The notes: generated by a model from the letters alone, not told the origin. Counted from the first letter of the stretch, positions 2,937 through 18,645 are shown. The stretch is 64,000 bases of DNA from an uncultured Verrucomicrobiae bacterium (GCA_937775205.1 CALKBX010000013.1:15648-79647), one strand, 5' to 3'. Made by a program: numbers and translations.

Positions 2937-3093
2937 ATTTATCTCATCCTCTGTAACCTTGGAGCCCATTGGCATTATTTCTACGGGCACTGCCGCTGGA
3001 GTCGGGCACGCCAAAGGAGTACATTTGAAAGTCGGCGATCAGGTTGAGGCGAGTATTGAAGAGATCGGAGCCTTGAAAAACACGATGGTTTAA
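2933..3093 (+). pseudogene. FAH 3'-end fragment, copy 2 (decaying)
   Basis: Encodes EFISSSVTLEPIGIISTGTAAGVGHAKGVHLKVGDQVEASIEEIGALKNTMV*, homologous to 2221-2389. No start codon; conserved PGD changed to PIG. Confidence 0.85.
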
Positions 3094-3107
3094 TGAAGTT
3101 AGACCAT

Positions 3108-3124
3108 CGCCTTGACTCGGTGAT
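3108..3124 (+). pseudogene. tRNA-Val(GAC) anticodon-arm remnant
   Basis: TCGCC-TTGACTC-GGTGA stem-loop, at the same offset after the FAH stop as the tRNA 3' half at 11070. Confidence 0.5.
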
Positions 3125-3317
3125 TAATCACTGTAAAGCCTATAAAACAAGGCTCAAACACATATTGATTTGTGCTATTTCGACTAATTTGAGCAGTCAC
3201 ACAAGTCATTCTTTTGGTGCAACTCGAACATCTTAAACCGAAACATAGTAGCAGTTCGACTAAATACATAAACCATGCTAGTCGTCATAGAATGGTGTGG
3301 CATACTAAGCTAGGAAG

Positions 3318-5747
3318 ATGATAACCATTCTTAAAATCACTGGCATCATGCTTGTTTTTCCGGCGATAACTTTCGCTGCTGAGCCGGCATTCGAAATGAT
3401 TCTGCAAAAGCATTGTGTGCGGTGTCATGGGCCGAAAAAGGCCAAAGGCGATTTGCGGTTGGATCAGATTTCGAGGGATTTTAAATCAGGAGTGGACGGA
3501 CAGATCTGGGCGGAGGTTGTCGAAAAAATTAATGCGGGCGAAATGCCGCCGGAGGATGAACCACAGCCGACATCCGAAGAGATCGGCAAGGTTATCTCAG
3601 AACTGGATACACGCATTCGCGAAGGCCGTGCCGAGCGCATGGCTGCACGACCGCCGGTGGCTCACTACCGACTCAGCCGCAACGAATATCAAAACACCGT
3701 TTATGATCTCTTGGGAGTCCGCTACGATCCGGCCAAGCCGGGCGAGTTGAATGAAGACACGCTTTGGCTCGGTTACGAACGGATCGGCTCGCAGCTTTCG
3801 CTCTCGCCTTCGCATGTGAATCGTTATTACCGCGCGGCGGAGATCGTACTCGACCGTGCTTTTCCCAAAAAAGTTGCCGAGACACGCAAGGTGCGCAAGA
3901 CGGCGGCGGAATTGAGGTATGGCGGCGGTGAGCAACAAAAGGAGGCTCTGGCTCGGTTCGGCATCAAACGTCCGCTGCGTTACCTCCATTTTCCTGGCCG
4001 CGTCCAAACTGCACTGTCCCCGAACTGGCTGGGTCGAACGGGTCCGGAACACAGCGGTCTTTACAAACTACGACTGCAAGCCAGCGGCATTCGCCCGCCC
4101 GGCGGTCAACCGGCCCACCTGAGCATTGGTAAGCGCACCAGTGAAGAGACCGTGGACGGCCTCATTGAACTCGATATCACCGCACCGGAAGACAGACCGC
4201 AGGTATATGAATTTGAAGTGTTCCTTGAGATGCCTACAGGACTGCACTTTGCGGTGGTGGCAACCGACGAAGTCGACCGGCGTGGCGGCGCGGCCTTCCG
4301 CAACGCGATCGCCAGCCGGGCTTATATCTTCACGCACAGCAGTGAGACTTTGCTCCTGAATCCCAACGCACCGCAGATGTTCGATGACAAAGGCAATGGC
4401 ATTTTTTCGACAGTAATTCTCGACTGGCTGGAATGGGAGGGCCCGTTGGTGACTGACGCGGAAAAATCCCGGCGCCGTGACGTGATACCACCCGAGGACG
4501 CCACGGTTGAAGTGGTCGCCGAGTATTTGCAACGCTTTGCCGAACGCGCCTGGCGCCGTCCGGTGAAATCGGCGGAATTAAAGAACTATCTCGACTCCTA
4601 CCACGTTGATCGCGAGGCCGGCGAAAAAGCGGTTTCCGCTTATTGCAATGCCCTACTGAGAGTGCTGACTTCCCGGAATTTCATCTACCTGGTCGAGGGT
4701 GATCCCGTGGCCCGCGAACGGCTCACGGATCAGGAACTCGCTTCGCGGCTTTCGTATTTTCTCTGGAGCTCGATGCCTGACGACGCGCTCCTTACCGCGG
4801 CCAAGGCCGGCAGCCTGAAAGAGGACCGATTGCAAAAGGAAGTAAACCGAATGCTGACCGATGTCCGGATCAACCGTTTCATCGAAGATTTTTCAAGGCA
4901 ATGGCTGCAACTGCATCGCGTGGGCATGTTCCCGCCGGACAAAAAACTGTACCTCGGCTACGACGATTGGCTCGAGACGAGCATGCGCAATGAGCCGGTG
5001 GAATATTTCCGTGAGTTGCTGACCAAGAACCTGCCTATCGAGAGTTTGATCGACTCGGACTGGACCATGGCCAACGCGCGACTTTGTGATTTCTACGGAT
5101 TGCCAGATCCAAAAAACGGCGGCTTCCAGCGCGTCACGCTCAAGGACGGAGATCATCGCGGCGGCCTGCTTACGATGGGGGCAGTGCTTGGTTTGACCTC
5201 CGACGGAACCCGCCATCGCCCAGTGCATCGCGGGGTTTGGGTCAGCGAAACGATCTTTAACAAGACACCGCCACCGCCGCCGGCCAATGTCGACCCTATC
5301 GAGCCGGTGCCGCCCACGGGCAATAAGATCACCATCCGGCAGCGCATCGAGGCACACGCCAAGAACGCGAACTGCGCAGCGTGCCACCGCACGATCGATC
5401 CGTTGGGGCTAGCCTTCGACCAATATGACGCCATCGGCCAATGGCGTACCCATGAACACGTGCCGACCGGTGTGGGTGAGAATCCGTTGGTGGACGCGTC
5501 CGGCGTCATGCCCGATGGCCGGAAGTTTGCGAACTCGGCCCAGTTCAAGCAATTGCTGTTGGAGGATCGCGACCAGATTGCGCGGGCGTTCATTGAGCAT
5601 CTTTGCACCTACGCGCTACGGCGCGTGTTGACAGTCGACGACCGCGATGACATTCAATCCATCGTTGAAAAAGCCAAGCAAGGACAGTATCGTGTTCAAA
5701 ACATTGTTCGGGCTGTGGCCACTTCCGAACTATTACAAAAACGCTAA
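3318..5747 (+). CDS. DUF1592/DUF1588/DUF1587/DUF1595/DUF1585 protein with planctomycete-type cytochrome c domain
   Basis: Signal peptide; CxxCH haem motifs CVRCH and CAACH; family motifs [44 protein letters not shown] and PPPPP. Confidence 0.9.
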
Positions 5748-5762
5748 AACCCAAGCCGAATC

Positions 5763-7118
5763 ATGAGCAATATTCAGACCCAATCCTGGTTAATCGACCG
5801 CCGCCACGCCCTGCGCGCAATGGGAACCTGCATCGCCCTGCCGATGCTTGAGTGCATGATCCCGCTGACGGCCAAGGAGAAAATCAGCTCGCCGCGACGC
5901 AGTGCCTTCATTTACCTCGCCAACGGCGTGCATTCGCTAAATTACCAGATCACCAAGCCGGGCAACGATTACCAATTCTCTCGCTCGCTCAAGCCGCTGG
6001 AGAAATTCCGTAACACCATAACGCCAATCAGCGGTCTGCACCATCCCGGAAGTCTGGGGCATCACCACAACTGCATCGACATCTTTCTGACCGGCGCCAA
6101 GATCGGTGCAGCGCATCGCAACACCATTTCAGTGGACCAAAAGATGGCGCAGGTCAGCGGGCAGCATACGCGCTATTCCTCCATGGAAATCGCGCTCACC
6201 GGCGGGTCCCTCGCCTGGACCCCGGACGGCGTTCAGCTTCCCGCAATGCGGCGGTGTAAACAAATTTTCGCCTCACTCTTCGAGGAGCCCAAGGACGGTA
6301 TTGCCGCCCAACGAAAGGCACTGCGACGCAAAGCCAGTGTGCTGGATGACAACCTTACCGAAGTTCGTCGTCTGTCTCAGAAAATCGGTGCAGCCGATAA
6401 AGGCCGCCTCGACCAATACCTCACCTCTGTCCGTGAGGCTGAGATTCGCACACGCCGCGCCGATGCCTGGCTCGACACGCCATTGCCGGAGATTTCTGCA
6501 GCCGACCGTCAACGCACCAACCGCGATGTGCCCAAGACACAGGCAGGCGACTATTTCCGCACGGTCTATGACCTCATGGTGCTGGCTTTCCAAACGGACG
6601 CTACGCGCGTGGCCACTTTCAGCCTAGGCGGCGAGGGCGATGCGTTCGCCATTCCGGAGATTGGTATCACCGAATCGCGCCACCAACTCAGCCACCACGG
6701 TGGTGATGAAGGCTACATGGAGAAGCTCACCAACTACGATACCTTCGCCATCGATCAATTCAGCTACTTCCTCACGCGGCTTTCGGAAACCAAGGATCTG
6801 AACGGTAAATCGTTGCTCGGTTCAACCATGTCGCTCTTCGGCAGCGGCATGTCCTACGGACACAGCCATGGGAATGCCAACCTGCCACTGGTACTCGCTG
6901 GCGGCACAGATCTCGGCCTGAAGCACGGCAGCCACCTCGATTTCAATCAGGGTCATTTCGACGGCTACACACTCAATAAGCCCGGCGACCACTACCGCCT
7001 CTGCAGTCGCCCTGCGAACACGGATGCCCACATGAGCAACCTGCTCCTCCTCATGTCCCAAAAGATGGGTTTGGAAACCGATCAATTCGGCGATAGCAAC
7101 AAAGTGATTTCGTTATGA
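5763..7118 (+). CDS. DUF1552 family protein
   Basis: Twin-arginine-like N-terminus (IDRRHALR), [22 protein letters not shown] and LPLVLAGG motifs; canonical partner downstream of DUF1592. Confidence 0.9.
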
Positions 7119-8405
7119 CTCGGATACAACCCGGCATACGTTTCGCCGTGCTGACACTCGGCGCGGCCCTGCTGACTGTGCCTTCTTACGCTGAGGAAAA
7201 ACCGTTCCGCCCTGAAGCGGGGAAGTTTCCTCCCTTGGACAAAGCACATGCCTACCGGGGCGAACTCATCTTTGTCGATCACGCCAACCGCCGTGGCAGC
7301 CTCCGCGTCGAAGGAACGGGCAAATTTTACCGAAACGACCCCCATCCATTCGCTCTACTTCCTTATGGCATAGTCCGCTACCACGATGCGCCTGCGGATC
7401 TGCGGGACGTTCCCTTGGGAACCGTTTTGCATGCCCATGGATTTCTACCGCCTGACCCCAAAATTTCCTCCGTTCCGGTATTGCCGACCAACAATAAGGG
7501 CAAGGACGCCGGCCATTATCGCGGCACTGGCATTTTCCCCGCAGAGAACCACGTCCTTCTACTTGAGGACGAGCCCAGTTACTGCAGACGAAACGGACTA
7601 ATCTGGAAACTCATGGAAGTGGAGATCAAGGGCAACGAGGGTTCGATTCTTGCCAGGCGTGAATCTCAAAAAAAGGATGAGAAAAAATACGAACCGGAAA
7701 AAATGACTTTCGATGCCGCCACACGTATTTGGCGTGGTCGCGAATCAATCCGAGTCTCGGATCTGATCGACGAGAAAGTATGGCCGGTAAGTGGAAAGAA
7801 AGAACCCAACGATCAAGCCGTTCTTGCTGAGCATCACTTGGAAACCCGCTCCTGGGGATGGACTGAGTGGGGCTTTCACACGCTTTCACGTCTCGGATAT
7901 CTGGTTGGACGACAAGTCTATTGAACACGCGGCCTATTTTCAGACTGAGAAGCACAAGACCTTTATCAAAAGCCGCTGGATGCCCGCCCGGGTTGATGAA
8001 ATAAACTATGGCAAGTTCGGTCGAGCTACCGTAACGGCTACCTTGTTCGGAGGAATGAGCGAATCCACCTTTATTCCGACTTCCGAAAGGGAAAGCGGTG
8101 GGCAAATTAATGGTGCGGAAAACACCCTGAAGCACACTGCAGGCCACTATGGCCCCGGACACATGGCCTCGGGTGGTAAAATCCTTCGAGTAAAGAAGAC
8201 GAGTGGTAAGATTCCCCTTGGCAGCAGCGGCATACAAGTCCAGTTCGAAACCGACCTCGTCATCGAGGGCATCCGCCCCGGCACGGGTCATCCGCGTTCG
8301 ACCGGACTCGTTGGCCCAAGATGCAGATACCCCGGGAAGAATACCTTTTCACATAACACGCCCGAGGACCGGTTCCCGACTCCGGCCATCTTCCCGAAAT
8401 ACTGA
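7115..8405 (+). CDS. Secreted protein of unknown function, paralog A (multiple frameshifts, probably errors)
   Basis: Signal peptide; colinear with the 8423-9688 protein across frame changes near 7830, 8070-8100 and 8280-8350; shared C-terminus PE(D/E)[11 protein letters not shown]. Confidence 0.75.
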
Positions 8406-8422
8406 CCCTAGGAAATCGCCTC

Positions 8423-9688
8423 ATGACTCAACTTAAACTTGTCCGATGGATCGCCACGCTGCCCCTCAGTGTGTGCCTCCTCGTTTCCAAAGCCAATGCC
8501 CAGGAAGAACCGTTCCGTCCTGAGGCGGGTAAATTCCCTCCGCTGGAAAAGGCTCATTCCTTCCGAGGCGAACTCACATTTGTTGACCACGCAAACCGAC
8601 GAGGCAGCCTACGCATCCAAGGCGCGGGCACCTACTTCCGCAACGCGCCGCACCCCTTCGCCATGTTGCCCTACGGCATCATCCGCTATCATGGAGCTCC
8701 TGCTGAACTGCGCGACATTCCCATCGGCACCGTACTCCATGCTCGGGGCTTTCTCCCGCCGAATCCCAAGCTTTCTTCCGTGCCGGTCTTGCCGGTCAAC
8801 AACCGGAACAAGACCGTCGGCTACAGCGGCAAAGGCATCGCCCCTGCCGAGAACCACCTCATCCTATTGGAAGACGAACCCAGCTTCTGCCAACGCGAAG
8901 GCAAAGTCTGGAAGCTCAAGGAAGTGGAACTCCAGAACAACACTGGCAAGATCACAGCTCGCCGCGAAGCCAAAATCGACGCCAACAAGGCCGAAGAGAA
9001 AACATTAACTTTCGATGCCGCCACCCGCATCTGGCGCGGTCGTGAGAAACTCGAAGTGGCCGACCTTGTCGCTGATGGCATCTGGCCTGCCAACGGCAAG
9101 AAAACCCTCAATGATCAAGCCGTCTTGCTCGGCATCACCTGGAAACCCACTCCGAGTAACATCTTTACCCGTTTCCACATCTCAGACATCTGGTTGGACG
9201 ATGTCGCCATGCAACGCGCCGCGCGTAATCAGACTGAGACGCACAAAGCATTCATCCGAACCCGCTGGATGCCCGGTTGGATTGATGCGGTTGAGTACGG
9301 CAAATTTGGTACCGCCACGGTGACCGCTACCCTATTCGGCGGCATGGATGAATCACTCTACGCAGATTTTAAGAAGGATTCCTCCGCCCTGATGAACGCA
9401 GTGGAGAGTAACCTCAAGCACACGCACGGCGCCTACAGCCCTGCTCACATGGCCAGTAAAGGCCCCATCCTTGATGTCATGAAAACCAAAGGTGACATCC
9501 CGTTCGGCAGCAGCGGTATCCAGATCAAATTCAAGACCGACCTTATCATCGAAGGCATACGCCCCGGCCGCAACATCCGCGTGCGCCCAAGTCACTGGCC
9601 TCACGTCAATATCCCCCGCGAAGAATACCTCGGCGGCAATACCCCCGAAGAACGCTTCCCTACCCCAGCCATCTTCCCGAAATATTGA
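8423..9688 (+). CDS. Secreted protein of unknown function, paralog B
   Basis: Intact 421-aa ORF with signal peptide; strong similarity to paralog A ([37 protein letters not shown]). Confidence 0.85.
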   Translation: MTQLKLVRWIATLPLSVCLLVSKANAQEEPFRPEAGKFPPLEKAHSFRGELTFVDHANRRGSLRIQGAGTYFRNAPHPFAMLPYGIIRYHGAPAELRDIPIGTVLHARGFLPPNPKLSSVPVLPVNNRNKTVGYSGKGIAPAENHLILLEDEPSFCQREGKVWKLKEVELQNNTGKITARREAKIDANKAEEKTLTFDAATRIWRGREKLEVADLVADGIWPANGKKTLNDQAVLLGITWKPTPSNIFTRFHISDIWLDDVAMQRAARNQTETHKAFIRTRWMPGWIDAVEYGKFGTATVTATLFGGMDESLYADFKKDSSALMNAVESNLKHTHGAYSPAHMASKGPILDVMKTKGDIPFGSSGIQIKFKTDLIIEGIRPGRNIRVRPSHWPHVNIPREEYLGGNTPEERFPTPAIFPKY

Positions 9689-9838
9689 GGCGACTATTAT
9701 CCGCCTCCACCTCAAAATTGGCCCAAGATCACTCCTTCTTCGAAGAATAAATCCGCGGCCTCGAAGCCCGCTGGCTGAGCTCTGAAATTTTCAAGAAGTA
9801 ATCGAGTGTTTGAACGAACTTCATGTTTTCCTAGGAAA

Positions 9839-9881
9839 GAGCGGTTAGCTCAGTTGGGAGAGCACTGCCTCGACACGGCGG
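9839..9881 (+). pseudogene. tRNA-Val(GAC) 5' half
   Basis: GAGCGGT-TA-GCTC-AGTTGGGA-GAGC-A-CTGCC-TCGACAC-GGCGG gives acceptor strand, D arm and anticodon arm (GAC). No T arm or CCA follows. Confidence 0.8.
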
Positions 9882-9911
9882 TGGCGCTGGGATAGAGAGC
9901 TTTCCTGAAAT

Positions 9912-10310
9912 CTATTCACTGTCAGAATCTTCCGCTGGATCTTCTCCGGATTCTGCAGCAGCAGCCTCACGAGCCTTGCGGGCTTCAATAAATGAACGGA
10001 TGCACAATCCAACAAAAACAACGCATAATACTAGCGTCACGGATTTAGCCGCAAGGGCAGCGGTGGGTTGACCTTTTTTTAATAGGGTGGGAATTACACC
10101 AATTGCCCCAATCAAGCCCACCATTACCGCGATGTGCATAGCCATCATCCGTCTATTTTCATTGGATGCTAGAAATCCACAGACCAGAAGAATCAACCCC
10201 AAGGCAGCAGGAATCAAAGCCGTTAGCTGCTCTGCACCTGTACCAAAATATCCGGCCAATCCAGTGGCGAGCAAAAGCGCCCCGAACAAAATTGTTATCT
10301 TATACATCAT
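9912..10310 (-). CDS. Small membrane protein (about 4 TM, TMEM14-like)
   Basis: Four hydrophobic segments (GLAGYFGTG, TALIPAALGLILL, AMHIAVMVGLIG, SVTLVLCVVFV) and an acidic tail. Family resemblance is by pattern. Confidence 0.7.
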   Translation of the reverse strand: MMYKITILFGALLLATGLAGYFGTGAEQLTALIPAALGLILLVCGFLASNENRRMMAMHIAVMVGLIGAIGVIPTLLKKGQPTAALAAKSVTLVLCVVFVGLCIRSFIEARKAREAAAAESGEDPAEDSDSE

Positions 10311-10348
10311 CGCGGCTGTCATTCTAACGGTTTACACACAAAGGTAAA

Positions 10349-10373
10349 GCTCTAGAGGCAGGACTCGAACCTG
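10349..10373 (-). pseudogene. Possible tRNA T-arm/3' fragment (tRNA-Leu-like)
   Basis: Minus strand reads CAGG-TTCGAGT-CCTG-CCTCTAGAGC, a perfect T stem-loop; the rest of the tRNA is absent. Confidence 0.4.
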
Positions 10374-10427
10374 TTCTGTTGTTTTCTGGGGGTAGTTGAC
10401 AGATTATTCACAACTTCGGATATACAC

Positions 10428-10460
10428 CACATCGAAACGGAGGGGGTCACTGGTTCGGGC
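10428..10460 (+). pseudogene. tRNA-Val fragment (anticodon arm to T loop), degenerate
   Basis: CACATCGAAACGGAGGGGGTCACTGGTTCGGGC matches 11071-11103 at 27/33 nt and abuts the ADH-fragment stop codon. Confidence 0.7.
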
Positions 10461-10805
10461 TTAAAACAAAATTACTTGGCGCGCGACTTCGCCTTTGTGG
10501 AGGCGATCGAAGCCTTCGTTGATTTCTTCCAAATGAAGGGTGTCAGTGAGTAGCTGGTCCACCGGTAATTGGCCGGCATGGAACATCTCAATAAACTTCG
10601 GGATATCACGGCTCGGCACGCAGCTTCCCTGATAGGAGCCTTTCACCGTTTTCTCCATCGCACTCAATGTGACGGCAGGAATACTGAATTGATGGTCTGG
10701 ATGCGGTAAACCAATGGCGACCGTGGTGCCTCCACGCATGGTCGATTCATAGGCTTGGGCGAGCACGGTGGCGTTTCCCGCGCTCTCAATAGCGATTTCC
10801 AAACC
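10461..10805 (-). pseudogene. Zn-ADH 3'-end fragment (duplicate of 17521-17865)
   Basis: About 113 in-frame codons homologous to the ADH C-terminus (GSYQGSCVPSRDIP...VARQVILF*); lacks the catalytic N-terminal part. Confidence 0.9.
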
Positions 10806-11056
10806 CTCAAAATCTGCCGCTTAAATTAACAGTAAATGGAGAAGTGCATCAGGATGCGAGCACGGCCATGCAGATTTTTCCGGTGGCTGCTGTGATTGAA
10901 TTCATTTCCTCTTTTGTGACCTTGGAACCCGGTGACATTATTTCCACGGGGACGGCCGCTGGGGTAGGGCACGCCAAGGGAGTTCACTTGAAATCGGGTG
11001 ATCAGGTTGAGGCCAGTATTGAAGGGATCGGAGCCTTGAAAAACACGATGGTCTAA
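10799..11056 (+). pseudogene. FAH 3'-end fragment, copy 3
   Basis: PNPQNLPLKLTVNGEVHQDASTAMQIFPVAAVIEFISSFVTLEPGDIISTGT...LKNTMV* in one frame; begins back-to-back with the ADH fragment. Confidence 0.9.
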
Positions 11057-11069
11057 TGATGTTCGACCA

Positions 11070-11119
11070 TCACCTCAACACGGTGGGGGTCAGTGGTTCG
11101 AGCCCACTACCGCGTGCCA
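11070..11119 (+). pseudogene. tRNA-Val 3' half
   Basis: TCACC-TCAACAC-GGTGG-GGGTC-AGTGG-TTCGAGC-CCACT-ACCGCGT-G-CCA followed by a T run; anticodon reads AAC; no D arm. Confidence 0.8.
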
Positions 11120-11160
11120 TTTTTCCTAACTCTGTATGACAGGGTTAAATGAGAACTGCC

Positions 11161-11277
11161 TCACTCAGGCCACTTTTCGCACTGTTGTTCAGTCCAGTCT
11201 TTACCTTTCGCTTCCTGCGCGAAAGCGTTGAAGCAAAAACTCAATGTAACAATCGTAGTAATAACTGCTTTCTTCAT
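11161..11277 (-). CDS. 38-aa small secreted protein or truncated gene
   Basis: MKKAVITTIVTLSFCFNAFAQEAKGKDWTEQQCEKWPE*; GAGGA ribosome-binding site about 8 nt upstream; signal peptide with AFA cleavage site. Below the ORF-track cutoff. Confidence 0.5.
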   Translation of the reverse strand: MKKAVITTIVTLSFCFNAFAQEAKGKDWTEQQCEKWPE

Positions 11278-11333
11278 GTATCGTTCCTCGTTAAATATTT
11301 TTGGTTAGAGTCCAAGTTTTGCGCCTTCGCTGC

Positions 11334-11426
11334 CTAGAGCGCGCTTACGCCCCAGAGCTTCGAAAGCTTCTTGCAGTGGATCACGATCGCCTTGTATTTC
11401 GACAGGTCCGTCCCCGCCGGGATATT
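11334..11426 (-). pseudogene. DM13-domain C-terminal remnant
   Basis: NIPAGTDLSKYKAIVIHCKKLSKLWGVSAL* matches the DM13 C-terminal pattern IPxGxDLSxYxxVVIWCxxFxxxFGxAxL; no intact upstream part. Confidence 0.55.
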
Positions 11427-11482
11427 CCTGCCATGGCATGTACTTTCCTGTCTCGAAGTTCGGTCGACCCATTTTTGGCGGA

Positions 11483-14400
11483 TTATTTGCCTTTTTTACG
11501 CTTGGCTCCTTCGCGTTTTTTGGCCATTGCCGCCTTGTACTTCTTCAATTGTTCTTCGTCCAGAATCTTGGCGAGACTGGCATGGAACTTCTTCCCGACA
11601 GCCTGTATTTTTTTGCGATCCTTTGATGCCTGCGCTTCCTTCATCAATGGCTGCATCGTTTTTTGGAGCTCCTGGACTTGCACCTTCTGTTCCTGGCTGA
11701 GACCAACGCCGGCGAACCGGTCAGGGCGGTTGCCTTTTCCCTTCTGATTTTCAGGTATTGCCTCCGCTCGAACAGGCAATTGTTTCGCGGTAGTAGATTG
11801 ATCATCGGTGGCGTCCGCCATGATTTTGAGGTCGTCAATTTCAATGCCGCTTTCGCCACCGTTCAGCATGAACAACAGCATGTTTTTTCGGAATGCAAAG
11901 CCAGGGCGCTGGAGGGATTTTGTCCAGCGATTGTTGTCCAGTCGGATCACCACGCGGTCGCCCTTAAAGACAAGTTGCAGGTTGTGCCAGTTCTTGTCCT
12001 GTAGGTCGACGGCCTCTGGTTTGAGTCTCTCTTCTACCCGATAGGCGCCACTGACTTTATCAGGTGGCCTGTCCTCCTTCTGTGGGCTTTGCTTTCTCCG
12101 CCGAGCGAGATTCTTGAGCAGTTTCGGATCTTTCGGGTTCTTCGTATGCGCATCGACTTGAATCCGCACCGAGTTTCTCAACAACGCCACCCGCAGCATA
12201 TGATCTTGCCCACCAAAACCATCGTCTCCATCGATAAACAGCCAGAGCATCCTGCCGTCGCCCAAATGCCTATAGCGAAAGGAAATGGAGCAATCGATTT
12301 CATCGATGGGAATGCCGACAAATGGCGGATATTTGCCGCCGCTATGGCCGCGGGTCCACATAGCGCCATTGCGTATCGTCGTGTATTCGGGGCTGAACCT
12401 AAGAAAACGGCTGGGATCGACTTTGTCGAAGGGCTCGTGTCCTTTGAACAGTTGCTTGATCGATGCGTCGGCAGGCGATTGGACATTCGTGTCCGTACTT
12501 CCCGAAACAGGTTGAAAACCCGCGCTCCTTTTCAAAACGTCACTACCTTTGGGTTCGCTGTAGAGATTATTCATAAAAGTTCGGCTGGAGATCAAATCCA
12601 GAACCAGCCCCTTGAAGCCGTCACCATCCAGTCGAGATTGCGTGACGAGTTGTTTTACTTTTTGCTTTTCCGAATAGTTCAAGACGCGGCCAGTCGCGTA
12701 GGTAAGCAACTTTTCTGACAAGCAGTTGCCAAAGTAATCGACGTTGGCAACAAGCCACCGCTTAAAGGCGGCAGCATCCTTAATTCTGGTACCGTCGAAG
12801 AGCACGCCTGAAGCGTCGATGGGCTTTTGGGTGGCGGGCCAGACCTGCCGCCACTTACCGACGGGATCGTAATTTTCCAACATAAAGCCGACGGGGTCGA
12901 TGAGTCGGTGGCACGATGCGCATGATGCGTCGGTGGTGTGTTTGGCCAGGAGTTCCCGTGGCGTGGTAGCGCCCCGGGTATCCGGCGTAAGGGCGGGGAC
13001 GTCCTGGGGCGGCTCCGGCGTCGGCATACCTAAGACGTTTTCCAAGACCCAGGCGCCGCGCAATACCGCTTGCGTATCGACGCCGTTAGCCGTTGCCATC
13101 ATCACAGCGGATTGCCCCAATATCCCGCCGTGGCGATGCCCCTTGGGGAGAGCGATGCGTTCCAGCTTCAGACGATTTATGTTTTCGATAGATTTGCGTT
13201 TCGGACCCGGACCCAGCCCGTAGATTCGGTGGGAGAAACTTGGCGTCGTATAGGTAAAATCCGGATCGATGAAGGTGCTGACGGGCAGATCTTTTGAGAG
13301 AATCTCGCTGAAGAAGTGAAACGTCTCCCGCTTGGCCGTTTCCGTATCGAGTGCTGAAAACTTGAATTTGGGGTCCGGCATGATGTCGTCGAGATCTCCC
13401 ACGTTGAGCCATTGACTGACAAAACTGGTAATCATCGGCGCATCGTACGTCGTGGGCATTAAGCGTTTGGCTTCGGCACGCAAAATCTGCGGATTCCGCA
13501 ACTGCGACTGGGATGCGAGCTGCAACAAGCGGGCATCTGGTGGTTGCTTCGTGAGAAAGTAGGATAAACGGGCGGCCAGATCGAAATCGTCGAGCTGATC
13601 GCCATTGTAGGAACGATACAAGAATCGCGGCGATATGAGAATCTTCCGCAGCAGCAGATGCATGGTCACGTCCGCATCATGCCCTTCGGAAAACGAGTGT
13701 TTAGCGATTTTCATATAGGTCGCGATGGTTTCTTCGCTGACGGGACGCCGAAATGCGCGCGGCAAAAATTGACGCAGAAAAGGCTCGATCATTGCCTCTC
13801 CAGAGCCTTTGCCGGCTGGGATGCCGAGTACCTTGAGTTTGAGCTTCGCTGCCGTTGCCTCGGATCGAGAGGGAATCAACTTCAGCGGTCCAGTGACACT
13901 GGCTGCATGCAGCTGCAGAGCGGGACCGTTTTCGAAATAATCCGGGGCAAGGAACTCGTAGAATCGCCGAGAAAACGGAAGTTTGTCCTTGGCGCCTGGC
14001 GGATTCCGAAAAAACCGAAAGATTTTAGCCGTGGTTTTGGGGTCGCGAGCTGCGGCGCTGACGTCCAGCTTTGGATCGTTCATCTGGTTCTGAAAGTGCT
14101 GCCACCCCTTGCCAAGTCCGCGGACGACTGATTGGTGAGATGTGGCAAGAGGGCCAAAGGTGGCGTTCCATACCGCGTGAAAGCGCTTGTCTATTTTGAA
14201 ACGTTCACGCAGGTGCGCTTCTAAAGGTTCGGCTTCAAAATCAATGGGAGCATTCTTGAAGTGAAAGATCAGGGTCTGCCCAGCATATAGATCCGCATCA
14301 AAGTGAACGATCTTGGGGGTCCTGGAGTCCACCCTTATTTCTTTTAGAAGACGAAACTTCTCGTAGCCAGCCCGGGGATTGGTGGTGCTTTCGGTTGCGC

Positions 14401-15304
14401 GAACGTGGAGTATCATCGGTTCCCGCATGAAATTGCCTCGTTTTGCATTGAAGGCCGACGTTTTAATTTCGATGCGGTAGGTGCCGGCCACTTTGGCTTC
14501 GAACTGATCCAGCCAGGTGCCGCTGAAAGCTTTCAAGTCTGTGCGGCTGACGAGGCGCAGCGCATCACCGTGAATGGAGGAGGCAGAATAGCTCTTGGCC
14601 ATGTCTTTCGGGCCGGCTTTGTGGGTTGTTGACTGCAGATCTCGAGACCGCTTGCGGGGATAAAAGAGGTCGGCAAACGTTTCGGCAGTTTCGGAATAAG
14701 CTTCCAACAGATCGGGAGAGGTAACCAGGCCTTCGCTGAGGTTGTCGAAACCGTGAAGCTCGTTGTCTTCTGGAAAACCCAGCGGCAATTTGGCCCCTCC
14801 CTGTTGGAACAGCGCCCGCATGGTGTTGCGGTATTCGTCGCGACTCAATCGGCGTGCTTTGGTGACGCCAAAGATTGGCGTCTCAGACAATTCTTTTGCA
14901 ATCCAATCGCTAAATTGCGTGCGCTCCGCTTCTCTTGGTTGTGACTTTTTCTTCGGCGGCATCAACTTGTCGTGATTTGCGCCAAGCACCTTTTCCCAAA
15001 AAACGCGGTCTACCTCCTGGCCCCAATCGACGACGTCGCGTTCAAGATTGACGTCGCCTTTCTCGGAGTCGCTGTCATGACAGTCGATGCAATAACGATT
15101 GACGTAGTCGTGGACAAACGACGGAACAGGTTCCGCCTGCGAAGCTTCGTTTATCACCTTAACCTGTACTCGAGGAGTATCAAGCTGATGACTTGCCGAT
15201 GGCTTCCCGCACCCAAATACAAAAAGGCTAAATAGAACTGTAATCGTCGCGACAAGCAGGTGAAGCCAGAGGCTCGCGGCGTTGCGAGTGTGTATAACCG
15301 CCAT
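11483..15304 (-). CDS. Lipoprotein cytochrome c / DUF1587-1592-1595-1588-1585 protein with extra beta-sandwich and Spy/CpxP-like C-terminal domains
   Basis: Lipobox LFVFGC; CIDCH and CASCH haem motifs; ARRLSRDEY, LAARLSYFL and GGILGQ motifs; about 330-aa C-terminal extension. ATG overlaps the DUF1552 stop (TAATG). Confidence 0.85.
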   Translation of the reverse strand: MAVIHTRNAASLWLHLLVATITVLFSLFVFGCGKPSASHQLDTPRVQVKVINEASQAEPVPSFVHDYVNRYCIDCHDSDSEKGDVNLERDVVDWGQEVDRVFWEKVLGANHDKLMPPKKKSQPREAERTQFSDWIAKELSETPIFGVTKARRLSRDEYRNTMRALFQQGGAKLPLGFPEDNELHGFDNLSEGLVTSPDLLEAYSETAETFADLFYPRKRSRDLQSTTHKAGPKDMAKSYSASSIHGDALRLVSRTDLKAFSGTWLDQFEAKVAGTYRIEIKTSAFNAKRGNFMREPMILHVRATESTTNPRAGYEKFRLLKEIRVDSRTPKIVHFDADLYAGQTLIFHFKNAPIDFEAEPLEAHLRERFKIDKRFHAVWNATFGPLATSHQSVVRGLGKGWQHFQNQMNDPKLDVSAAARDPKTTAKIFRFFRNPPGAKDKLPFSRRFYEFLAPDYFENGPALQLHAASVTGPLKLIPSRSEATAAKLKLKVLGIPAGKGSGEAMIEPFLRQFLPRAFRRPVSEETIATYMKIAKHSFSEGHDADVTMHLLLRKILISPRFLYRSYNGDQLDDFDLAARLSYFLTKQPPDARLLQLASQSQLRNPQILRAEAKRLMPTTYDAPMITSFVSQWLNVGDLDDIMPDPKFKFSALDTETAKRETFHFFSEILSKDLPVSTFIDPDFTYTTPSFSHRIYGLGPGPKRKSIENINRLKLERIALPKGHRHGGILGQSAVMMATANGVDTQAVLRGAWVLENVLGMPTPEPPQDVPALTPDTRGATTPRELLAKHTTDASCASCHRLIDPVGFMLENYDPVGKWRQVWPATQKPIDASGVLFDGTRIKDAAAFKRWLVANVDYFGNCLSEKLLTYATGRVLNYSEKQKVKQLVTQSRLDGDGFKGLVLDLISSRTFMNNLYSEPKGSDVLKRSAGFQPVSGSTDTNVQSPADASIKQLFKGHEPFDKVDPSRFLRFSPEYTTIRNGAMWTRGHSGGKYPPFVGIPIDEIDCSISFRYRHLGDGRMLWLFIDGDDGFGGQDHMLRVALLRNSVRIQVDAHTKNPKDPKLLKNLARRRKQSPQKEDRPPDKVSGAYRVEERLKPEAVDLQDKNWHNLQLVFKGDRVVIRLDNNRWTKSLQRPGFAFRKNMLLFMLNGGESGIEIDDLKIMADATDDQSTTAKQLPVRAEAIPENQKGKGNRPDRFAGVGLSQEQKVQVQELQKTMQPLMKEAQASKDRKKIQAVGKKFHASLAKILDEEQLKKYKAAMAKKREGAKRKKGK

Positions 15305-16545
15305 TATGCTTCCCACAACGAGTTTAGGTTTCGCGAGGCGTTGGAGAAACGCTCGCACTCGATTCCCAGCCGCTGCTGCAAAGAAATGAAGAGATCACCC
15401 AACAGGTAGGGGGCACGAGTGCTTGGGTCGACCGCAACGTGGCGACCGTGCTTGCCGCCGCCGCCCGCCACCAAGCTCGGGAGATTTCGATTCGAATGAC
15501 GACTGGCGTCTCCCATGCCTGTTCCAAGAAAAACCAAGGTGCTGTCGAGAAGTGGCCGACCCAGGGCGTCTTTCTTTTCCTTTAACTGGTCCAGAAAGCC
15601 GTTGAAGCGCTTTACGTGCTCGCGCTCGATCCGGATCAGGTCGCGAATTCGTGAGGGATCGTTGCCGTGATGAGACAGCGTATGATAACCTTGACTGAGG
15701 GACTCGCCCTCGAGTTCGAAAACCGGGCCTCCGCCGCCCAACTGCATCGTTAAAACGCGACTGGAACCGTTTTGGATGGCCAGGGCGATGAGATCATACA
15801 TCAGCGTTGAGCACTCCATCTGTTGTCGCGGCGCTACCGGATCACTGTCTGGAAGTTTGTAGCTGGTGGTCGGTACGGGATCGTTGATCCGCGCAATTCG
15901 CGTTTCCAAGCGCTTCTCCACGCTGCGTAGCGAGGTGAAGTATTCGTCCAACGCGCTTTGGTCACGGCGCGAGACTGTTTTCTGAAGTCGATTGGCGTCT
16001 TCCAGCACATAGTCCATGGCCGACTTCCCGCTCCGCAGAATGTGCTCCTGATGCTTCTGATCGGCTTGCGAAATGAACATTTTCTTGTAAAACACCGATG
16101 GTCGTCTGATGGCGGGCAATCGTGTTCCCTGCTTCGAAAAGCTCATCGGAGCGGCACTGCCTCCGGCGACTAGCTGAACAGAGCTGAAACGACAGCTCGT
16201 TCCGATTTGGTCGGCGATCATCTGATCCAGGGAGTAGCTGCCAACCCTTTGGCCGCAGAGTAAGTTCGCCCAATAGTTGTGACCATTGGGCGCCTGATGA
16301 TCCAAGCCCGAGAAGATTGTGAAGTCCCGACGATGTCCGGCAATGGGTTCCAGTATTTCCGGCATCGTATAGTTGGCGCCAGCCTCTTTGGGATAGAACC
16401 CCTTTTGATACCAACCAAGGTTGGCTCCAATGGCGACAAAAGCTTTGGCCTTTTTTGATGCATCTTTAGGGGCTCCAAAACTCTCAAGAGCCGGGAGGGC
16501 GATGCATACGCCGAGTGATGAGAGAAATTGCTGACGTGATATCAT
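15304..16545 (-). CDS. DUF1552 family protein
   Basis: SLDQMIADQIG, YHTLSHHG, LGTGMGDASRHS and NLPSLVAGG motifs; degenerate twin-arginine N-terminus (ISRQQFL). Confidence 0.9.
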   Translation of the reverse strand: MISRQQFLSSLGVCIALPALESFGAPKDASKKAKAFVAIGANLGWYQKGFYPKEAGANYTMPEILEPIAGHRRDFTIFSGLDHQAPNGHNYWANLLCGQRVGSYSLDQMIADQIGTSCRFSSVQLVAGGSAAPMSFSKQGTRLPAIRRPSVFYKKMFISQADQKHQEHILRSGKSAMDYVLEDANRLQKTVSRRDQSALDEYFTSLRSVEKRLETRIARINDPVPTTSYKLPDSDPVAPRQQMECSTLMYDLIALAIQNGSSRVLTMQLGGGGPVFELEGESLSQGYHTLSHHGNDPSRIRDLIRIEREHVKRFNGFLDQLKEKKDALGRPLLDSTLVFLGTGMGDASRHSNRNLPSLVAGGGGKHGRHVAVDPSTRAPYLLGDLFISLQQRLGIECERFSNASRNLNSLWEA

Positions 16546-16719
16546 GTGGCGGCCTCTGTCTCTAGCGCTTGGTCATTGTGCTCAATGCACAGGGTCTGAA
16601 TTGATCGGTGGTGTGGAGTAACGGCACAAACAGTACTCTTGTGGCTTCTTGTTTTCTGTTATCCGTAGCAGCCGGCAAGTTCATGAACATGAACCTACCC
16701 AGTGAGCTCTTAAAGCTAT

Positions 16720-16755
16720 AGAATGAAACGGTTTGTTTTTTAGATGAAATCGGCG
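16720..16755 (-). promoter_or_regulatory. Candidate AraC-type tandem operator
   Basis: Minus strand CCGATTTCATC and CCGTTTCATTC with TTTCAT cores 21 bp apart, upstream of the DUF1552 operon. Confidence 0.3.
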
Positions 16756-16762
16756 TCAGGGG

Positions 16763-17497
16763 CTATCTGGCCCGATGTGATTTACGGTAAGTAAGAGGGG
16801 TTGTTTTCATGATACGTGAGAACTCACGGGAGAGGTGGCTTTGATCCGAGAAACCACAGCGATGGGCAACTTCAACAAGCTGGTGACTGCTATGACTGAG
16901 GAGATAACATGCTTCATGCACGCGGAGGTGCCGGATGTAGCTCCGTGCCGTCATATGGAATGCTTTTTTAAATTTCCGTTCAAAAGCACTGAGTGAAAGC
17001 CCGACTTCCTTGGCGAGTTCGGAGATTTTGATGGTGGATGCAAATTGTTCTTTCATCACCCCGAGTGCTGGGCCGAGTTCTCTATCAATATCGATTCCTA
17101 AAGTTCCCAAGGCAAAGGGACGAGTGGCCCCGGCGATGGCTTTGATGGTGCCATCGGGAGCGCGGAGCGGGATTTTCGTGGTAGTCGACCAATCGACAAA
17201 TCCACCGCCACTAGGAACGAGTTCAACTTTGTTTAAGATGGGCATTCCTGTTTCCAGGATAGTGCGGTCACTTTTGGCATAGCCGTCGGCCATGGATAGA
17301 GAGAAAAAGTCGTAGTCAGTTTTGCCGATGACCTCCTGAGCATCTTTGCAACCAAATTTCTCCACTAATCGTTGGTTGACAGCCACAAAGCGGAACTGGG
17401 TGTCTTTGACAAAATAGAGAAAGCCTTCGATATGATCGAAGAGGCTCTCGCCATGGTCTGTCAGGCCGTTGGATGTGAAAAAATCGTGATCGCTCAT
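16763..17497 (-). CDS. PAS-domain AraC family transcriptional regulator
   Basis: N-terminal PAS (FVKD, VIGKTDYD, KIPLR) and C-terminal double HTH (LAKEVGLSLSAFERKFKK, CGFSDQSHLSREF). Confidence 0.92.
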   Translation of the reverse strand: MSDHDFFTSNGLTDHGESLFDHIEGFLYFVKDTQFRFVAVNQRLVEKFGCKDAQEVIGKTDYDFFSLSMADGYAKSDRTILETGMPILNKVELVPSGGGFVDWSTTTKIPLRAPDGTIKAIAGATRPFALGTLGIDIDRELGPALGVMKEQFASTIKISELAKEVGLSLSAFERKFKKAFHMTARSYIRHLRVHEACYLLSHSSHQLVEVAHRCGFSDQSHLSREFSRIMKTTPLTYRKSHRAR

Positions 17498-17507
17498 GGT
17501 TATCGGA

Positions 17508-17520
17508 CATTGGTTCGAGC
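17508..17520 (+). pseudogene. tRNA T-arm remnant
   Basis: CATTGGTTCGAGC directly abuts the ADH stop, mirroring 10448-10460. Confidence 0.5.
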
Positions 17521-18645
17521 TTAAAATAAAATCACCTGCCGGGCAACTTCACCTTTGTGAAGTCGGTCAAAGCCCTCGTTTATTTCTTCCAACTTGATGG
17601 TGTCAGTGAGTAGCTTATCCACCGGTAATTGGCCGGCATGAAACATCTCAATAAACTTCGGGATATCACGGCTCGGCACGCAGCTTCCCTGATAGGAGCC
17701 TTTCACCGTTTTCTCCATCGCACTGAGCGACACGGCGGACACGCTGAATTGATGTTCCGGATGCGGCAGGCTGATGGCGATGGTGGTGCCGCCGCGCGCG
17801 GTGGATTCGTACGCCTGCACCAGCACCTTCGCGTGGCCGGCGCTTTCGAGGGCGATTTCCACGCCACCGTGGGTGAGGTCGCGGATGGCTTCCACGGGAT
17901 CGCACTCGGCGGCATTTACGGTGTGTGTCGCGCCGAGGTTGCGGGCCATCTCGAGTTTTGATTCCAGTAAATCGACGGCGATGATTGTGCCCGCGTCGCA
18001 CGCCTTCGCGCCCATCAACGCGGCAAGCCCCACGCCGCCGAGGCCGAACACCGCGACCGATTGGCCGGGGCGAATGTCAGCGGTATTCATCACCGCGCCG
18101 GTGCCGGTCATCACCGCACAGCCAAAAAGCGTGGCGTGCTCGAAAGGCAAGTCGTTGTCAATCTTCACCAACGAGCCGGGCAGGGCGATGGTGTATTGCG
18201 AATAACCGGACACGCCGCAGTGGTGAAAATACGATTTGCCGTTGCGGCTGAATCGTTGGGCGCCATTCAACAACGTGCCGGCGTTGTTGGCGTCCATCCC
18301 CGGTTCGCAAAGGGAAGGGCGGCCTTCGGCGCAGTAGCGGCACGCGCCGCAGCTGGGGATGAAGGTGAAAACCACGTGGTCATCCGGCGCAAATCCGCGC
18401 ACGCCTTTGCCCACTTCGCGCACGATGCCGCTGGCTTCGTGGCCGAGCACCATCGGCATGGGTCGCGGTCGCGCGCCCTCGATGACCGATAAATCCGAGT
18501 GACATAGCCCCGCGCCTTTCACCTCCACCAACACCTCGCCTTCGCCGGGGCCTTCGAGTTCCAATTCCTCGATGACCATCGGTTGCGAGTCGGCGTAGGG
18601 CAATGGCCGTTCTGTTTTGTGCAGCACCGCGGCGGTAGTTTTCAT
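17521..18645 (-). CDS. Zinc-dependent alcohol dehydrogenase (MDR, class III-like)
   Basis: GLCHSD, GHEASG, structural CxxCxxCx7C and Rossmann GLGGVG motifs; start MKTTAA at 18645. Confidence 0.95.
   Translation of the reverse strand: MKTTAAVLHKTERPLPYADSQPMVIEELELEGPGEGEVLVEVKGAGLCHSDLSVIEGARPRPMPMVLGHEASGIVREVGKGVRGFAPDDHVVFTFIPSCGACRYCAEGRPSLCEPGMDANNAGTLLNGAQRFSRNGKSYFHHCGVSGYSQYTIALPGSLVKIDNDLPFEHATLFGCAVMTGTGAVMNTADIRPGQSVAVFGLGGVGLAALMGAKACDAGTIIAVDLLESKLEMARNLGATHTVNAAECDPVEAIRDLTHGGVEIALESAGHAKVLVQAYESTARGGTTIAISLPHPEHQFSVSAVSLSAMEKTVKGSYQGSCVPSRDIPKFIEMFHAGQLPVDKLLTDTIKLEEINEGFDRLHKGEVARQVILF

Follow-up and report, generated by a model that had tools for sequence, protein, structure and literature searches.

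tRNA-Val relics at the seams of an insertion hotspot between two converging core genes of marine Verrucomicrobia

Why does a stretch of bacterial DNA hold several pieces of tRNA-Val, all in one direction, and no tRNA gene? The question arises in an abundant lineage of marine Verrucomicrobia, where two core genes, FAH and ADH, converge and the region between them has been rebuilt repeatedly. A preliminary description of the window (the whole 64-kb stretch that was analysed) had listed five tRNA-Val(GAC) fragments with neither an intact tRNA nor an integrase beside them. Both absences were borne out: in the window, ARAGORN called 0 tRNA genes and Rfam gave 0 matches at the gathering threshold, while Pfam and PHROG scans of all large open reading frames found no integrase or transposase, with IMG/VR loci that carry an integrase 70-200 nt from a tRNA fragment as the positive control. 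The features are as follows.

1527..2388, + strand: FAH1, full-length gene of the fumarylacetoacetate-hydrolase family (Pfam PF01557)
2400..2936, + strand: DZR, double-zinc-ribbon protein, 178 aa (Pfam PF12773, synteny)
2937..3093, + strand: 'FAHa, displaced C-terminal FAH fragment ending MV-stop (Pfam, alignment, 84% repeat with 10896-11085)
3100..3124, + strand: fragment A, anticodon arm (TCGCC TTGACTC GGTGA) preceded by the 3' side of the D stem, the left-part copy of D
3125..9838, + strand: insert I, four-gene slice of a conserved operon (Pfam, homology to L033/L036)
3318-5747, + strand: PSD/PSCyt protein of insert I (Pfam)
5763-7118, + strand: DUF1552 protein of insert I (Pfam)
7115-8405 (frameshifted here) and 8423-9688, + strand: unknown paralogues of insert I
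9839..9881, + strand: fragment B, tRNA-Val 5' half with acceptor 5' strand, D arm and anticodon arm, C33, GAC (nhmmer, 25-mer)
9882..9895, + strand: F', native FAH tail and stop, TGGCGCTGGGATAG (compared with FAH tails of L010, L011, L063)
9912..10322, - strand: memb, small membrane protein gene, ~132-136 aa (97% nucleotide identity to L011; RNA contigs)
10428..10460, + strand: fragment C, tRNA-Val from the anticodon arm as far as the T loop; its end, GGTTCGGGC, directly abuts the ADH' stop
10461..10801, - strand: ADH', C-terminal 113 codons of an L011-type Zn-dehydrogenase (Pfam PF00107), truncated at the tandem junction
10797-10805, no strand: ADH'/'FAHb junction, with TTCCA (10797-10801) common to both parents, a 5-nt microhomology
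10802..11056, + strand: 'FAHb, second C-terminal FAH fragment ending MV-stop (Pfam)
11067..11119, + strand: fragment D, tRNA-Val anticodon arm to CCA (nhmmer; truncated Rfam match)
11120..17510, - strand, same direction as ADH: insert II (Pfam, homology to L040)
~11130-11280, - strand: remnant of a 143-aa gene, insert II
11483-15304, - strand: PSD protein of insert II (Pfam)
15304-16545, - strand: DUF1552 protein of insert II (Pfam)
16763-17497, - strand: AraC/PAS regulator of insert II (Pfam)
17508..17520, + strand: fragment E, T-loop piece directly abutting the ADH stop
17521..18645, - strand: full ADH, 374 aa, a hybrid gene

To judge the pieces, a profile made from 4 tRNA-Val sequences of IMG/VR loci was run with nhmmer over the whole 64 kb. 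Fragments D (11067-11112, E=9.4e-10), B (9840-9882, E=3.3e-6) and C (10423-10460, E=7.4e-5) matched significantly; E (17505-17520, E=3.6) was non-significant and A gave no match. The general Rfam tRNA model found D as its sole match, truncated and at 14.7 bits (E=0.51; gathering score 29), and nothing in B or C. An exact 25-mer of a phage tRNA-Val gene is present in B. Fragment D, with its loop TCAACAC, perfect T arm, acceptor 3' strand and CCA at 11117-11119, has GGGGGTCAGTGGTTCGAGCCCACTAC in common with real tRNA-Val(GAC) genes, and its T arm is identical in such genes and in phage att fragments of IMG/VR. Thus B, C and D are derived from tRNA-Val, as had been proposed. A and E are at chance level alone and by themselves constitute no evidence, because their patterns recur in the window: hairpins of the A type (5-bp stem, U33 and GAC loop) occur 9 times compared with 3.5 in shuffles, and 9-mers of the E type, with at most 1 mismatch, 16 times. 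By eye, and weakly, the tRNA-like stretch in A and D may begin upstream of the anticodon arm, in the D stem and loop.

None of the pieces has the makings of a working tRNA. U33 is near-universal in tRNAs, and both B and D have C33 in its place; the anticodon reads GAC in B, AAC in D and GAA in C. We found no complete cloverleaf at threshold and, in B, D and C, no U33 with a coherent anticodon. B and D together do hold every tRNA element, and an RNA contig lies over 9820-9970, as would suit halves that are expressed apart and then joined into a split or permuted tRNA, or that act as tRNA-half regulatory RNAs. However, C33 in both halves and the AAC of D speak against such a function, the halves overlap across the whole anticodon arm, and the sequences after B and before D are not complementary, their duplex of -8.3 kcal/mol comparing with a shuffle mean of -15.1. 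The contig over 9820-9970 spans the memb stop at 9912, and the RNA over B is probably memb transcript; no RNA contig covered D in four metatranscriptomes. Fragment A, also present in L058-L061, has a decayed stem in these sister strains. We consider a functional role very improbable, and conclude that all pieces are inert, non-functional relics of a tRNA-Val(GAC)-type sequence.

The arrangement of the pieces is explained by two long repeats, 2933-3122 against 10896-11085 and 10445-10744 against 17505-17804, each at 84% identity. A and E count as real after all, because they sit in second copies of the FAH/tRNA junction (D) and the tRNA/ADH junction (C). The spacing of pieces after an FAH stop and their flushness with an ADH stop, previously read as separate hits, therefore reflect one junction each in two copies; five fragments and repeated hits were an overcount, and the independent tRNA pieces number about three. 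The window is made of two divergent allelic versions of the interval from the FAH end to the ADH end, joined head to tail in tandem: version 1 is 'FAHa - A - insert I - B - FAH tail - memb - C - ADH', and version 2 is 'FAHb - D - insert II - E - ADH. Since two versions lie in tandem, both kinds of junction are seen twice. A slice of a PSD/DUF1552 operon of ordinary type is found in each version, and the tRNA scraps lie where the parts meet. Positions 9873-11052 of the window correspond to L063 4-1174, which is contiguous there, in circularly permuted order, with the ADH'/'FAHb junction as the point of closure.

A mosaic of this kind from an uncultured organism might be an assembly or binning artefact across repeats, and short-read contigs do break at an 83-nt tract that is identical between the full ADH (17642-17724) and ADH' (10582-10664). 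Nevertheless, an independent 146-kb contig, L001, is colinear and 98.4% identical over 7514-28629, the stretch from D to E is covered by L003 and L057, and L058-L061 cross the junction at A. Of the 31-mers in 9600-11400, 79-94% occur in each of at least 20 seawater metagenome runs, drawn from many studies, and in three runs a 1392-nt contig crosses ADH'/'FAHb together with D. We therefore give a chimera hardly any credence; the 83-nt tract itself, a conversion tract common to the two ADH copies, counts among the signs of an inter-lineage origin.

Relatives show what the interval looked like without these additions. In L031, L012 and L062, which represent the state of the deepest relatives, FAH and ADH share part of their stop codons (GATTAAAAC), so that no tRNA could fit between them. 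Others read FAH-DZR-ADH (L008, L014, L009) or FAH(-DZR-'FAH)-tail-memb-C-ADH (L010, L011, L063), and L032 and L013 have another PSD/DUF1552 pair. The FAH-ADH interval, seen in at least six allelic states, is a strain-variable insertion hotspot, and ARAGORN found no tRNA there in ~16 related loci: the site lacks a working tRNA gene in every relative sampled here. These results bear directly on the ancestral order FAH-tRNA(Val)-ADH of the preliminary description, which had an intact tRNA-Val(GAC) broken in place by repeated hits. An artificial join of B(1-43) with D(44-76) is indeed called tRNA-Val(gac) by ARAGORN, and all pieces are co-oriented, although the co-orientation follows largely from A/D and C/E being copies. 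The overlapping stops and the lack of a tRNA in any relative run counter to such an ancestor, B and D both contain the anticodon arm, and their acceptor strands, aligned by eye, pair at 5 of 7 positions plus one G-U. Sister genomes had been named as the place to look for a tRNA-Val between FAH and ADH, and its absence from relatives as a ground for refutation; none of those sampled carries one. The sampling to date thus contradicts a tRNA destroyed at this site, which is very improbable in our judgement.

The flanking genes and cargo are themselves mosaic. Translation and alignment show that FAH1 has lost its frame: compared with the gene of L058/L060, which is intact and codes for 309 aa, it has two +1 insertions (2013, 2317). 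DZR, the first inserted module, is common to L008-L011, L014 and L058-L061, and the memb module, whose product has a weak DUF5336 match under the Pfam cut-off (24.5 vs 28.6 bits), to L010, L011 and L063. In alignments, the 5' part of 'FAHa resembles the L010/L011 fragment and its 3' part 'FAHb; 'FAHb in turn has 89% nucleotide identity to the FAH of L063 and 95.7% amino-acid identity to that of L031. Positions 9882-10802 are 97-99% identical to L011, including ADH' at 99% to the L011 ADH, whereas the backbone (GFO, N_methyl and the N-terminal part of ADH) has 91-98% identity to L008/L014 compared with 78-89% to L011. The full ADH changes partner at ~17862, its N-terminal two-thirds being 94-98% identical to L008/L014 and its C-terminal third at most 85% identical to any sampled relative. 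Insert I (3375-9686) shares ~80% nucleotide identity with L033/L036, in which different genes flank the operon, a third paralogue belongs to it and a tRNA is absent; the anticodon arms at its two ends, A and B, match at 11 of 17 positions, counted by eye. Insert II reaches 92.6% nucleotide identity to L040, where its genes lie in a different context, and the homology stops inside the 143-aa gene at ~11180. Fragment C is identical in L011, has 4 mismatches in L010 and also occurs in L063, and in the population it has at least two different left flanks, joined at the anticodon arm. The idea that fragments travel as passive scars at cassette borders thus survives in part: they do lie at insert borders, and C and A are carried in relatives, but the cargo does not form discrete cassettes.

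Readable junctions with microhomology, together with mosaic flanking genes, point to recombination between lineages. We hold it to be the probable origin of the locus, with some reserve, that recombination by one-sided homology and microhomology built it, possibly with one integrase-type T-loop event for insert II. The deep ancestor would have had overlapping FAH and ADH stops and no tRNA. Modules would then have been inserted between the gene ends, each displacing a copy of a gene end, with DZR added first and then the memb module with piece C as its right end. DNA of a diverged lineage may have entered with one side anchored by homology, in FAH or in ADH, or by Campbell-type integration of a circularised fragment, and the other side would have been joined illegitimately at short microhomologies, such as the one that the 3' end of FAH (AACACGATGGTGG) has in common with the anticodon loop and stem of the tRNA (GACACGGCGGGGG). 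The tRNA most likely first arrived with DNA that had once been the neighbour of a tRNA-Val gene at another place, or had been integrated there. A classical T-loop crossover may have brought in insert II, its integrase acting in trans or later deleted.

Consistent with this proposal, homologous anchors with a mosaic breakpoint in a shared gene appear in 'FAHa and the hybrid ADH. Illegitimate junctions at 3-10 nt of microhomology appear at TTCCA (ADH'/'FAHb) and at ACACG..GG, where B meets the FAH tail and 9 of 12 positions are common to the FAH end and the tRNA; the parents at both junctions were deduced from relatives and are not the true donors. The cargo is no discrete element, insert I being four genes of a longer operon and insert II cutting the 143-aa gene. 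By the account in PMC6382021 (citing de Vries & Wackernagel 2002), illegitimate recombination with one-sided homology and junction segments of 3-10 bp is documented in transformable bacteria. Against the proposal, illegitimate recombination alone explains neither why tRNA-Val lies at 4 of ~5 seams nor why the breakpoints fall at both of the sublocations that integrases classically use. The microhomologies, all of them short, were picked out after the fact, the order of events is not unique, and neither natural competence nor a one-sided-homology route is known for this lineage. The postulated parents, version 2 alone and a minimal FAH-tRNA(partial)-ADH allele, did not appear in metagenome scans, which gave the same species only.

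The breakpoints do lie at the two sub-sites first described, A and B ending at position 43, the end of the anticodon arm, and C and E at position 60, in the T loop. A tRNA-Val remnant in the FAH-ADH spacer might accordingly have served as a pseudo-att site for serial insertions by tyrosine integrases, now lost or acting in trans, at the anticodon arm (insert I, memb module) and the T loop (insert II), leaving att scars. The shared end of A and B and the anticodon-arm joins of C to different flanks fit this scheme. D, running from anticodon arm to CCA, is shaped like a real att fragment, and its T arm recurs in IMG/VR att fragments 70-200 nt from tyrosine integrases. A perfect 10-bp direct repeat, TGGTTCGAGC, flanks insert II (11094-11103 in D, 17511-17520 in E) and has only those two copies in the window. 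Yet 64 kb hold no integrase and the regenerated tRNA is absent. Only D runs from a crossover site to the tRNA 3' end, which reciprocal site-specific recombination preserves and which A, B, C and E lack, B being a 5' half, a piece not found on classical elements. The inserts are operon slices cut short, and the duplication and mosaic structure of the FAH and ADH ends are not integrase effects. We regard serial integration as possible but rather unlikely, and return to inter-lineage recombination as our preferred reading.

Among known systems, islands and prophages whose ends are marked by displaced tRNA fragments are established (Islander, PMC4383910; PMC9897764). The locus resembles them in its partial tRNA copies at the borders of acquired DNA, in breakpoints in the anticodon arm and T loop, and in the likeness of D to integrase-linked tRNA-Val(GAC) att fragments of IMG/VR. 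It differs in having no intact regenerated tRNA at an island end, in the window or related loci, and no tyrosine or serine integrase inside an island beside an att site in the window; 4 of the 5 pieces lack the tRNA 3' end, one of them a 5' half, and the genes on either side of the site both code for proteins and flank a tRNA in none of the sampled relatives. Homology-facilitated illegitimate recombination, as outlined in PMC6382021 (de Vries & Wackernagel 2002; Prudhomme 2002; Meier & Wackernagel 2003), is matched in that 'FAHa as a mosaic and ADH as a hybrid show an anchor in homology on one side, that the joins opposite have microhomologies of 5-9 nt, and that the donor DNA is 15-25% diverged. 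Unlike in that account, the outcome here is duplicative, with resident gene ends kept, which also fits Campbell-type insertion, and the route is not demonstrated in Verrucomicrobia. Nanoarchaeum-type split tRNA genes have halves that do not overlap and complementary sequences behind the 5' half and ahead of the 3' half; here the B and D halves overlap and their duplex is weaker than in shuffled controls. Integron arrays likewise have co-oriented short repeats between cargo segments at a fixed site, but the window has no intI or attI, no evident attC-like imperfect palindrome, and no integrase by Pfam or PHROG; its cargo consists of four-gene and three-gene operon slices instead of single-gene cassettes, and its repeats of tRNA and gene-end remnants. 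Element e14 in icd of E. coli replaces the 3' end of a protein gene and leaves the old end as a pseudogene fragment; here too, inserted DNA is bordered by duplicates of the FAH and ADH 3' ends that have diverged (75-84% identity), although there are no integrase or phage genes and the fragment length varies between alleles. That genes are gained at chromosomal hotspots lying between core genes is a general concept, and the same interval here carries different cargo across strains and species in its allelic states. Unlike in such hotspots, the alleles here are stacked in tandem with tRNA scraps at their seams. We conclude that the locus is an ordinary, if intricate, recombination hotspot, and that the tRNA pieces are dead leftovers at its seams.

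Five co-oriented (+) tRNA-Val-like stretches, A (3100-3124), B (9839-9881), C (10428-10460), D (11067-11119) and E (17508-17520), lie between two converging core genes, FAH and ADH; all five were found at these coordinates. The features assigned with Pfam are the following.

1527-2388: full FAH-family gene, frameshifted here
2400-2936: DZR, a double-zinc-ribbon gene
ending at 3093 and 11056: two displaced FAH C-terminal fragments, 'FAHa and 'FAHb
3318-9688: insert I cargo, planctomycete-type PSD/PSCyt and DUF1552 genes
10461-10801, - strand: ADH C-terminal fragment, ADH'
11483-17497: insert II cargo, planctomycete-type PSD/PSCyt and DUF1552 genes plus an AraC/PAS regulator
17521-18645, - strand: full Zn-ADH

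Neither an integrase nor a transposase is among the window's large ORFs, and the integrase had already been noted as missing in the preliminary description. Relative to the intact 309-aa gene of two relatives (L058/L060), FAH (1527-2388) has one extra base at 2013 and another at 2317, and is either a pseudogene or affected by sequencing errors. The spacer between the ADH stop and the start of AraC/PAS is only 23 nt long (17498-17520) and contains fragment E, so that insert II probably forms one transcription unit with ADH by read-through.

As the preliminary description had it, there is no complete tRNA in this window: ARAGORN found no tRNA gene in the 64 kb and no RNA family reached Rfam gathering thresholds. 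The general Rfam tRNA covariance model matched D alone, truncated and marginal (14.7 bits), and gave nothing for B or C. Because this model is unsuited to internal fragments, we instead searched all 64 kb with nhmmer, using a tRNA-Val profile made from four tRNA-Val sequences of IMG/VR loci. The significant matches were D (11067-11112, E=9.4e-10), B (9840-9882, E=3.3e-6) and C (10423-10460, E=7.4e-5); E (17505-17520) reached only E=3.6, and A gave no match. Over 25 nt B is an exact match to a bona fide tRNA-Val gene, 26 nt of D (variable loop, T arm, acceptor) are common to real tRNA-Val(GAC) genes, and ARAGORN reads an artificial join of B (1-43) and D (44-76) as tRNA-Val(gac). A-type hairpins number 9 in the window versus 3.5 in shuffles, and E-type 9-mers with at most one mismatch number 16, so A and E are no evidence on their own. 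The A and D junctions are contained in one repeat pair (2933-3122/10896-11085, 84%) and the C and E junctions in another (10445-10744/17505-17804, 84%), and A and E are real solely as second copies of these longer repeats. Thus B, C and D stand as solid fragments, and A and E are duplicate scraps at chance level when taken alone. The fragment starts at a fixed distance after an FAH stop, and the ends flush with an ADH stop, each turn out to be one junction in two copies; the repeated hits once proposed were overcounted.

Two weaker structures were also seen. A minus-strand scrap at 10345-10375 (T arm and acceptor 3' strand; reverse complement ACAGGTTCGAGTCCTGCCTCTAGAGCT) lies directly upstream of memb, the small membrane-protein gene, with more decayed copies in L010, L011 and L063; as a tRNA match it was rejected as not significant (nhmmer, E=4.2). 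A hairpin, GATGGT-13 nt-ACCATC, crosses each FAH-fragment stop codon (3084-3109 and 11046-11071), and its pairing survives a G-U change in L058-L061; it may be a D-arm mimic or a coincidence.

The source organism is an uncultured, abundant marine verrucomicrobium. An assembly artefact was rejected as the source of the arrangement: an independent contig of 146 kb matches it colinearly (98.4% over 7514-28629). Other contigs span individual junctions, and those from metagenome runs cross both D and the ADH'|'FAH junction. At least 20 seawater metagenome runs contain 79-94% of the 31-mers of 9600-11400, and contig branching is limited to an 83-nt tract identical in both ADH copies. With regard to function, B and D both have C33, the D anticodon is AAC, and the two halves overlap across the anticodon arm. 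A split tRNA was rejected, the B and D halves being without complementary leaders. In four metatranscriptomes, RNA was confined to the membrane-protein gene and ADH-type mRNA, with none over D. The fragments are best regarded as inert, and their earlier description as passive scars at segment borders holds.

We compared ~16 related loci, obtained by a genome scan with ADH and look-ups of the FAH fragments. None of them has a tRNA at the locus, and in L031, L012 and L062 the stop codons of FAH (or 'FAH) and ADH overlap (GATTAAAAC), which leaves no space for one. An ancestral FAH-tRNA-ADH order, as previously proposed, is contradicted by these loci, under the refuting condition that the preliminary description itself had set; by parsimony, the ancestral state would have been without a tRNA. 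Further states are FAH-DZR-ADH (L008, L014), the same plus small repeat elements (L009), FAH-DZR-'FAH with its native tail followed by memb, C and ADH (L010, L011; likewise L063, without DZR on the contig), a different PSD/DUF1552 pair with no tRNA pieces (L032, L013), and FAH-DZR-'FAH-A-insert I with the 3' half of the A stem decayed (L058-L061). These allelic states mark the FAH-ADH interval as a strain-variable insertion hotspot, and among the ~16 loci tRNA pieces are confined to a shallow subclade. At the L009 locus (locus coordinates 11122-11206 and 11739-12093), a ~330-nt element with inverted-repeat borders sits between FAH and DZR, and related TGAACACAGATGTTCACGAT-type repeats adjoin the ADH stop; both look MITE-like. 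DNA and RNA contigs from three seawater runs (X1, X3, X26) carry a second allele at 10430, in which a different left flank (...CTGATCAGCGGCAAGGGACGG), without a match among the sequences compared, is joined at the anticodon arm of C and followed by a full L011-type ADH. JGI metagenomes yielded no intact B+D-like tRNA-Val(GAC), B-type and D-type anticodon arms had no match in IMG/VR, and the 27-mer at the D 3' end had none in our search; scanning metagenomes for the FAH|tRNA junction brought up the same species alone (L057).

At the seams, the FAH frame ends as ...AACACGATGG|TGGCGYYGGGATAG in L010, L011 and L063, and B reads ...GACACGGCGG|TGGCGCTGGGATAG; thus a tRNA anticodon loop and stem is fused to the native FAH tail, across a 12-nt zone in which 9 positions are common to FAH and tRNA. 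The ADH'|'FAHb junction is TTCCA (10797-10801), common to L011-type ADH and FAH, and the contiguous FAH-tail-memb-C-ADH of L063 recurs in circularly permuted form at 9873-11052. Identity to L011 is 97-99% over 9882-10802. Across the backbone (GFO, N_methyl, ADH N-terminal two-thirds) it is only 78-89%, against 91-98% to L008/L014. 'FAHa is itself a mosaic. In the full ADH, no relative exceeds 85% identity over the C-terminal third (17521-17862), and the rest (17863-18645) is 94-98% identical to L008/L014, which makes ADH a hybrid with a breakpoint near 17862; its C-terminal third would derive from an unsampled lineage. The 83-nt tract (10582-10664 and 17642-17724), identical also in L011, stands out from ADH copies otherwise ~80% identical and is probably a gene conversion from the ADH fragment to the live gene.

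We propose that two divergent FAH-end-to-ADH-end intervals were placed in tandem. Version 1 would read 'FAHa - A - insert I - B - FAH tail - memb - C - ADH', with the tRNA remnant interrupted where the anticodon arm ends, and version 2 'FAHb - D - insert II - E - ADH, with the remnant interrupted in the T loop. This layout accounts for both 84% repeat pairs together. One allele would have supplied a fragment with its two ends inside FAH and ADH, closed at TTCCA and inserted beside another allele, an event of which tandem versions are the expected product. The insertion would have used either one homologous crossover or illegitimate recombination with one-sided homology. For the latter there are precedents in transformable bacteria, where the junction segments measure 3-10 bp (PMC6382021). 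Circularised-fragment insertion, one-sided-homology insertion, and tandem duplication followed by allele replacement would all yield the same final map.

The cargo has relatives elsewhere. For insert I (3375-9686) the match, at ~80% identity, is an L033/L036 operon that continues with more genes to either side, includes a third paralogue and lacks a tRNA. Insert II (11180-16527) is up to 92.6% identical to L040, where its context differs, and the homology ends within a 143-aa gene of which the window retains only the start. The cargo is therefore not a discrete mobile element. A native position of either insert beside a tRNA-Val gene was rejected, the homologous operons in L033-L038 and L040-L042 being without tRNA. 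Within the insert II PSD gene, 2.5 kb (12559-15094; L040 2931-5460) are 92.6% identical with flanks at 70-76%, which suggests a recent recombination patch within the gene. The genes at 7115-9688 (L033 6698-10558) belong to a conserved secreted-protein family of ~421-427 aa with no Pfam domain and 3910 homologues at E<=1e-10, whose members, two or three in tandem, follow PSD-DUF1552 pairs in marine Verrucomicrobia and Planctomycetes. The first paralogue (7115-8405), which L001, L033 and L036 have as one 427-aa gene, is divided into two ORFs here, either by frameshift or by sequencing error.

A history driven mainly by integrases seems unlikely to us. In a positive control, IMG/VR loci with a D-type T arm hold tRNA-Val(GAC) fragments, from anticodon loop to 3' end, 70-200 nt from a tyrosine integrase, in agreement with what is established for island ends (PMC4383910, PMC9897764). 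D has this shape, but it is the sole such fragment: A, B, C and E are without a tRNA 3' end, B is a 5' half, and both a regenerated tRNA and an integrase are absent. Insert II is flanked by the direct repeat TGGTTCGAGC, found only at 11094-11103 (D) and 17511-17520 (E). This 10-bp repeat, together with the T-loop-to-CCA block on the left of insert II, makes entry of the insert by a classical T-loop event plausible, in which the integrase would have acted in trans or been deleted.

This locus in an abundant uncultured marine verrucomicrobium was rebuilt via exchange between lineages, and orphan tRNA fragments can evidently last, and even be duplicated, at a distance from any tRNA gene or integrase. 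In annotation, such scraps should not count as evidence of a lost tRNA gene or island. The series from overlapping stops through DZR and memb to stacked alleles can serve as a natural record of one-sided-homology recombination; we know of no recombination genetics for the phylum Verrucomicrobia. A new mechanism would follow only if the FAH-ADH interval were a reusable tRNA-Val-derived landing pad, with integron-like stacking of PSD/DUF1552 slices and no resident integrase, the slices having been captured beside tRNA-Val genes by integrases elsewhere or tRNA-Val serving as a portable homology anchor, which we hold to be highly improbable. We conclude that the locus is a recombination-built mosaic at an insertion hotspot, another example of known phenomena and not a new system.
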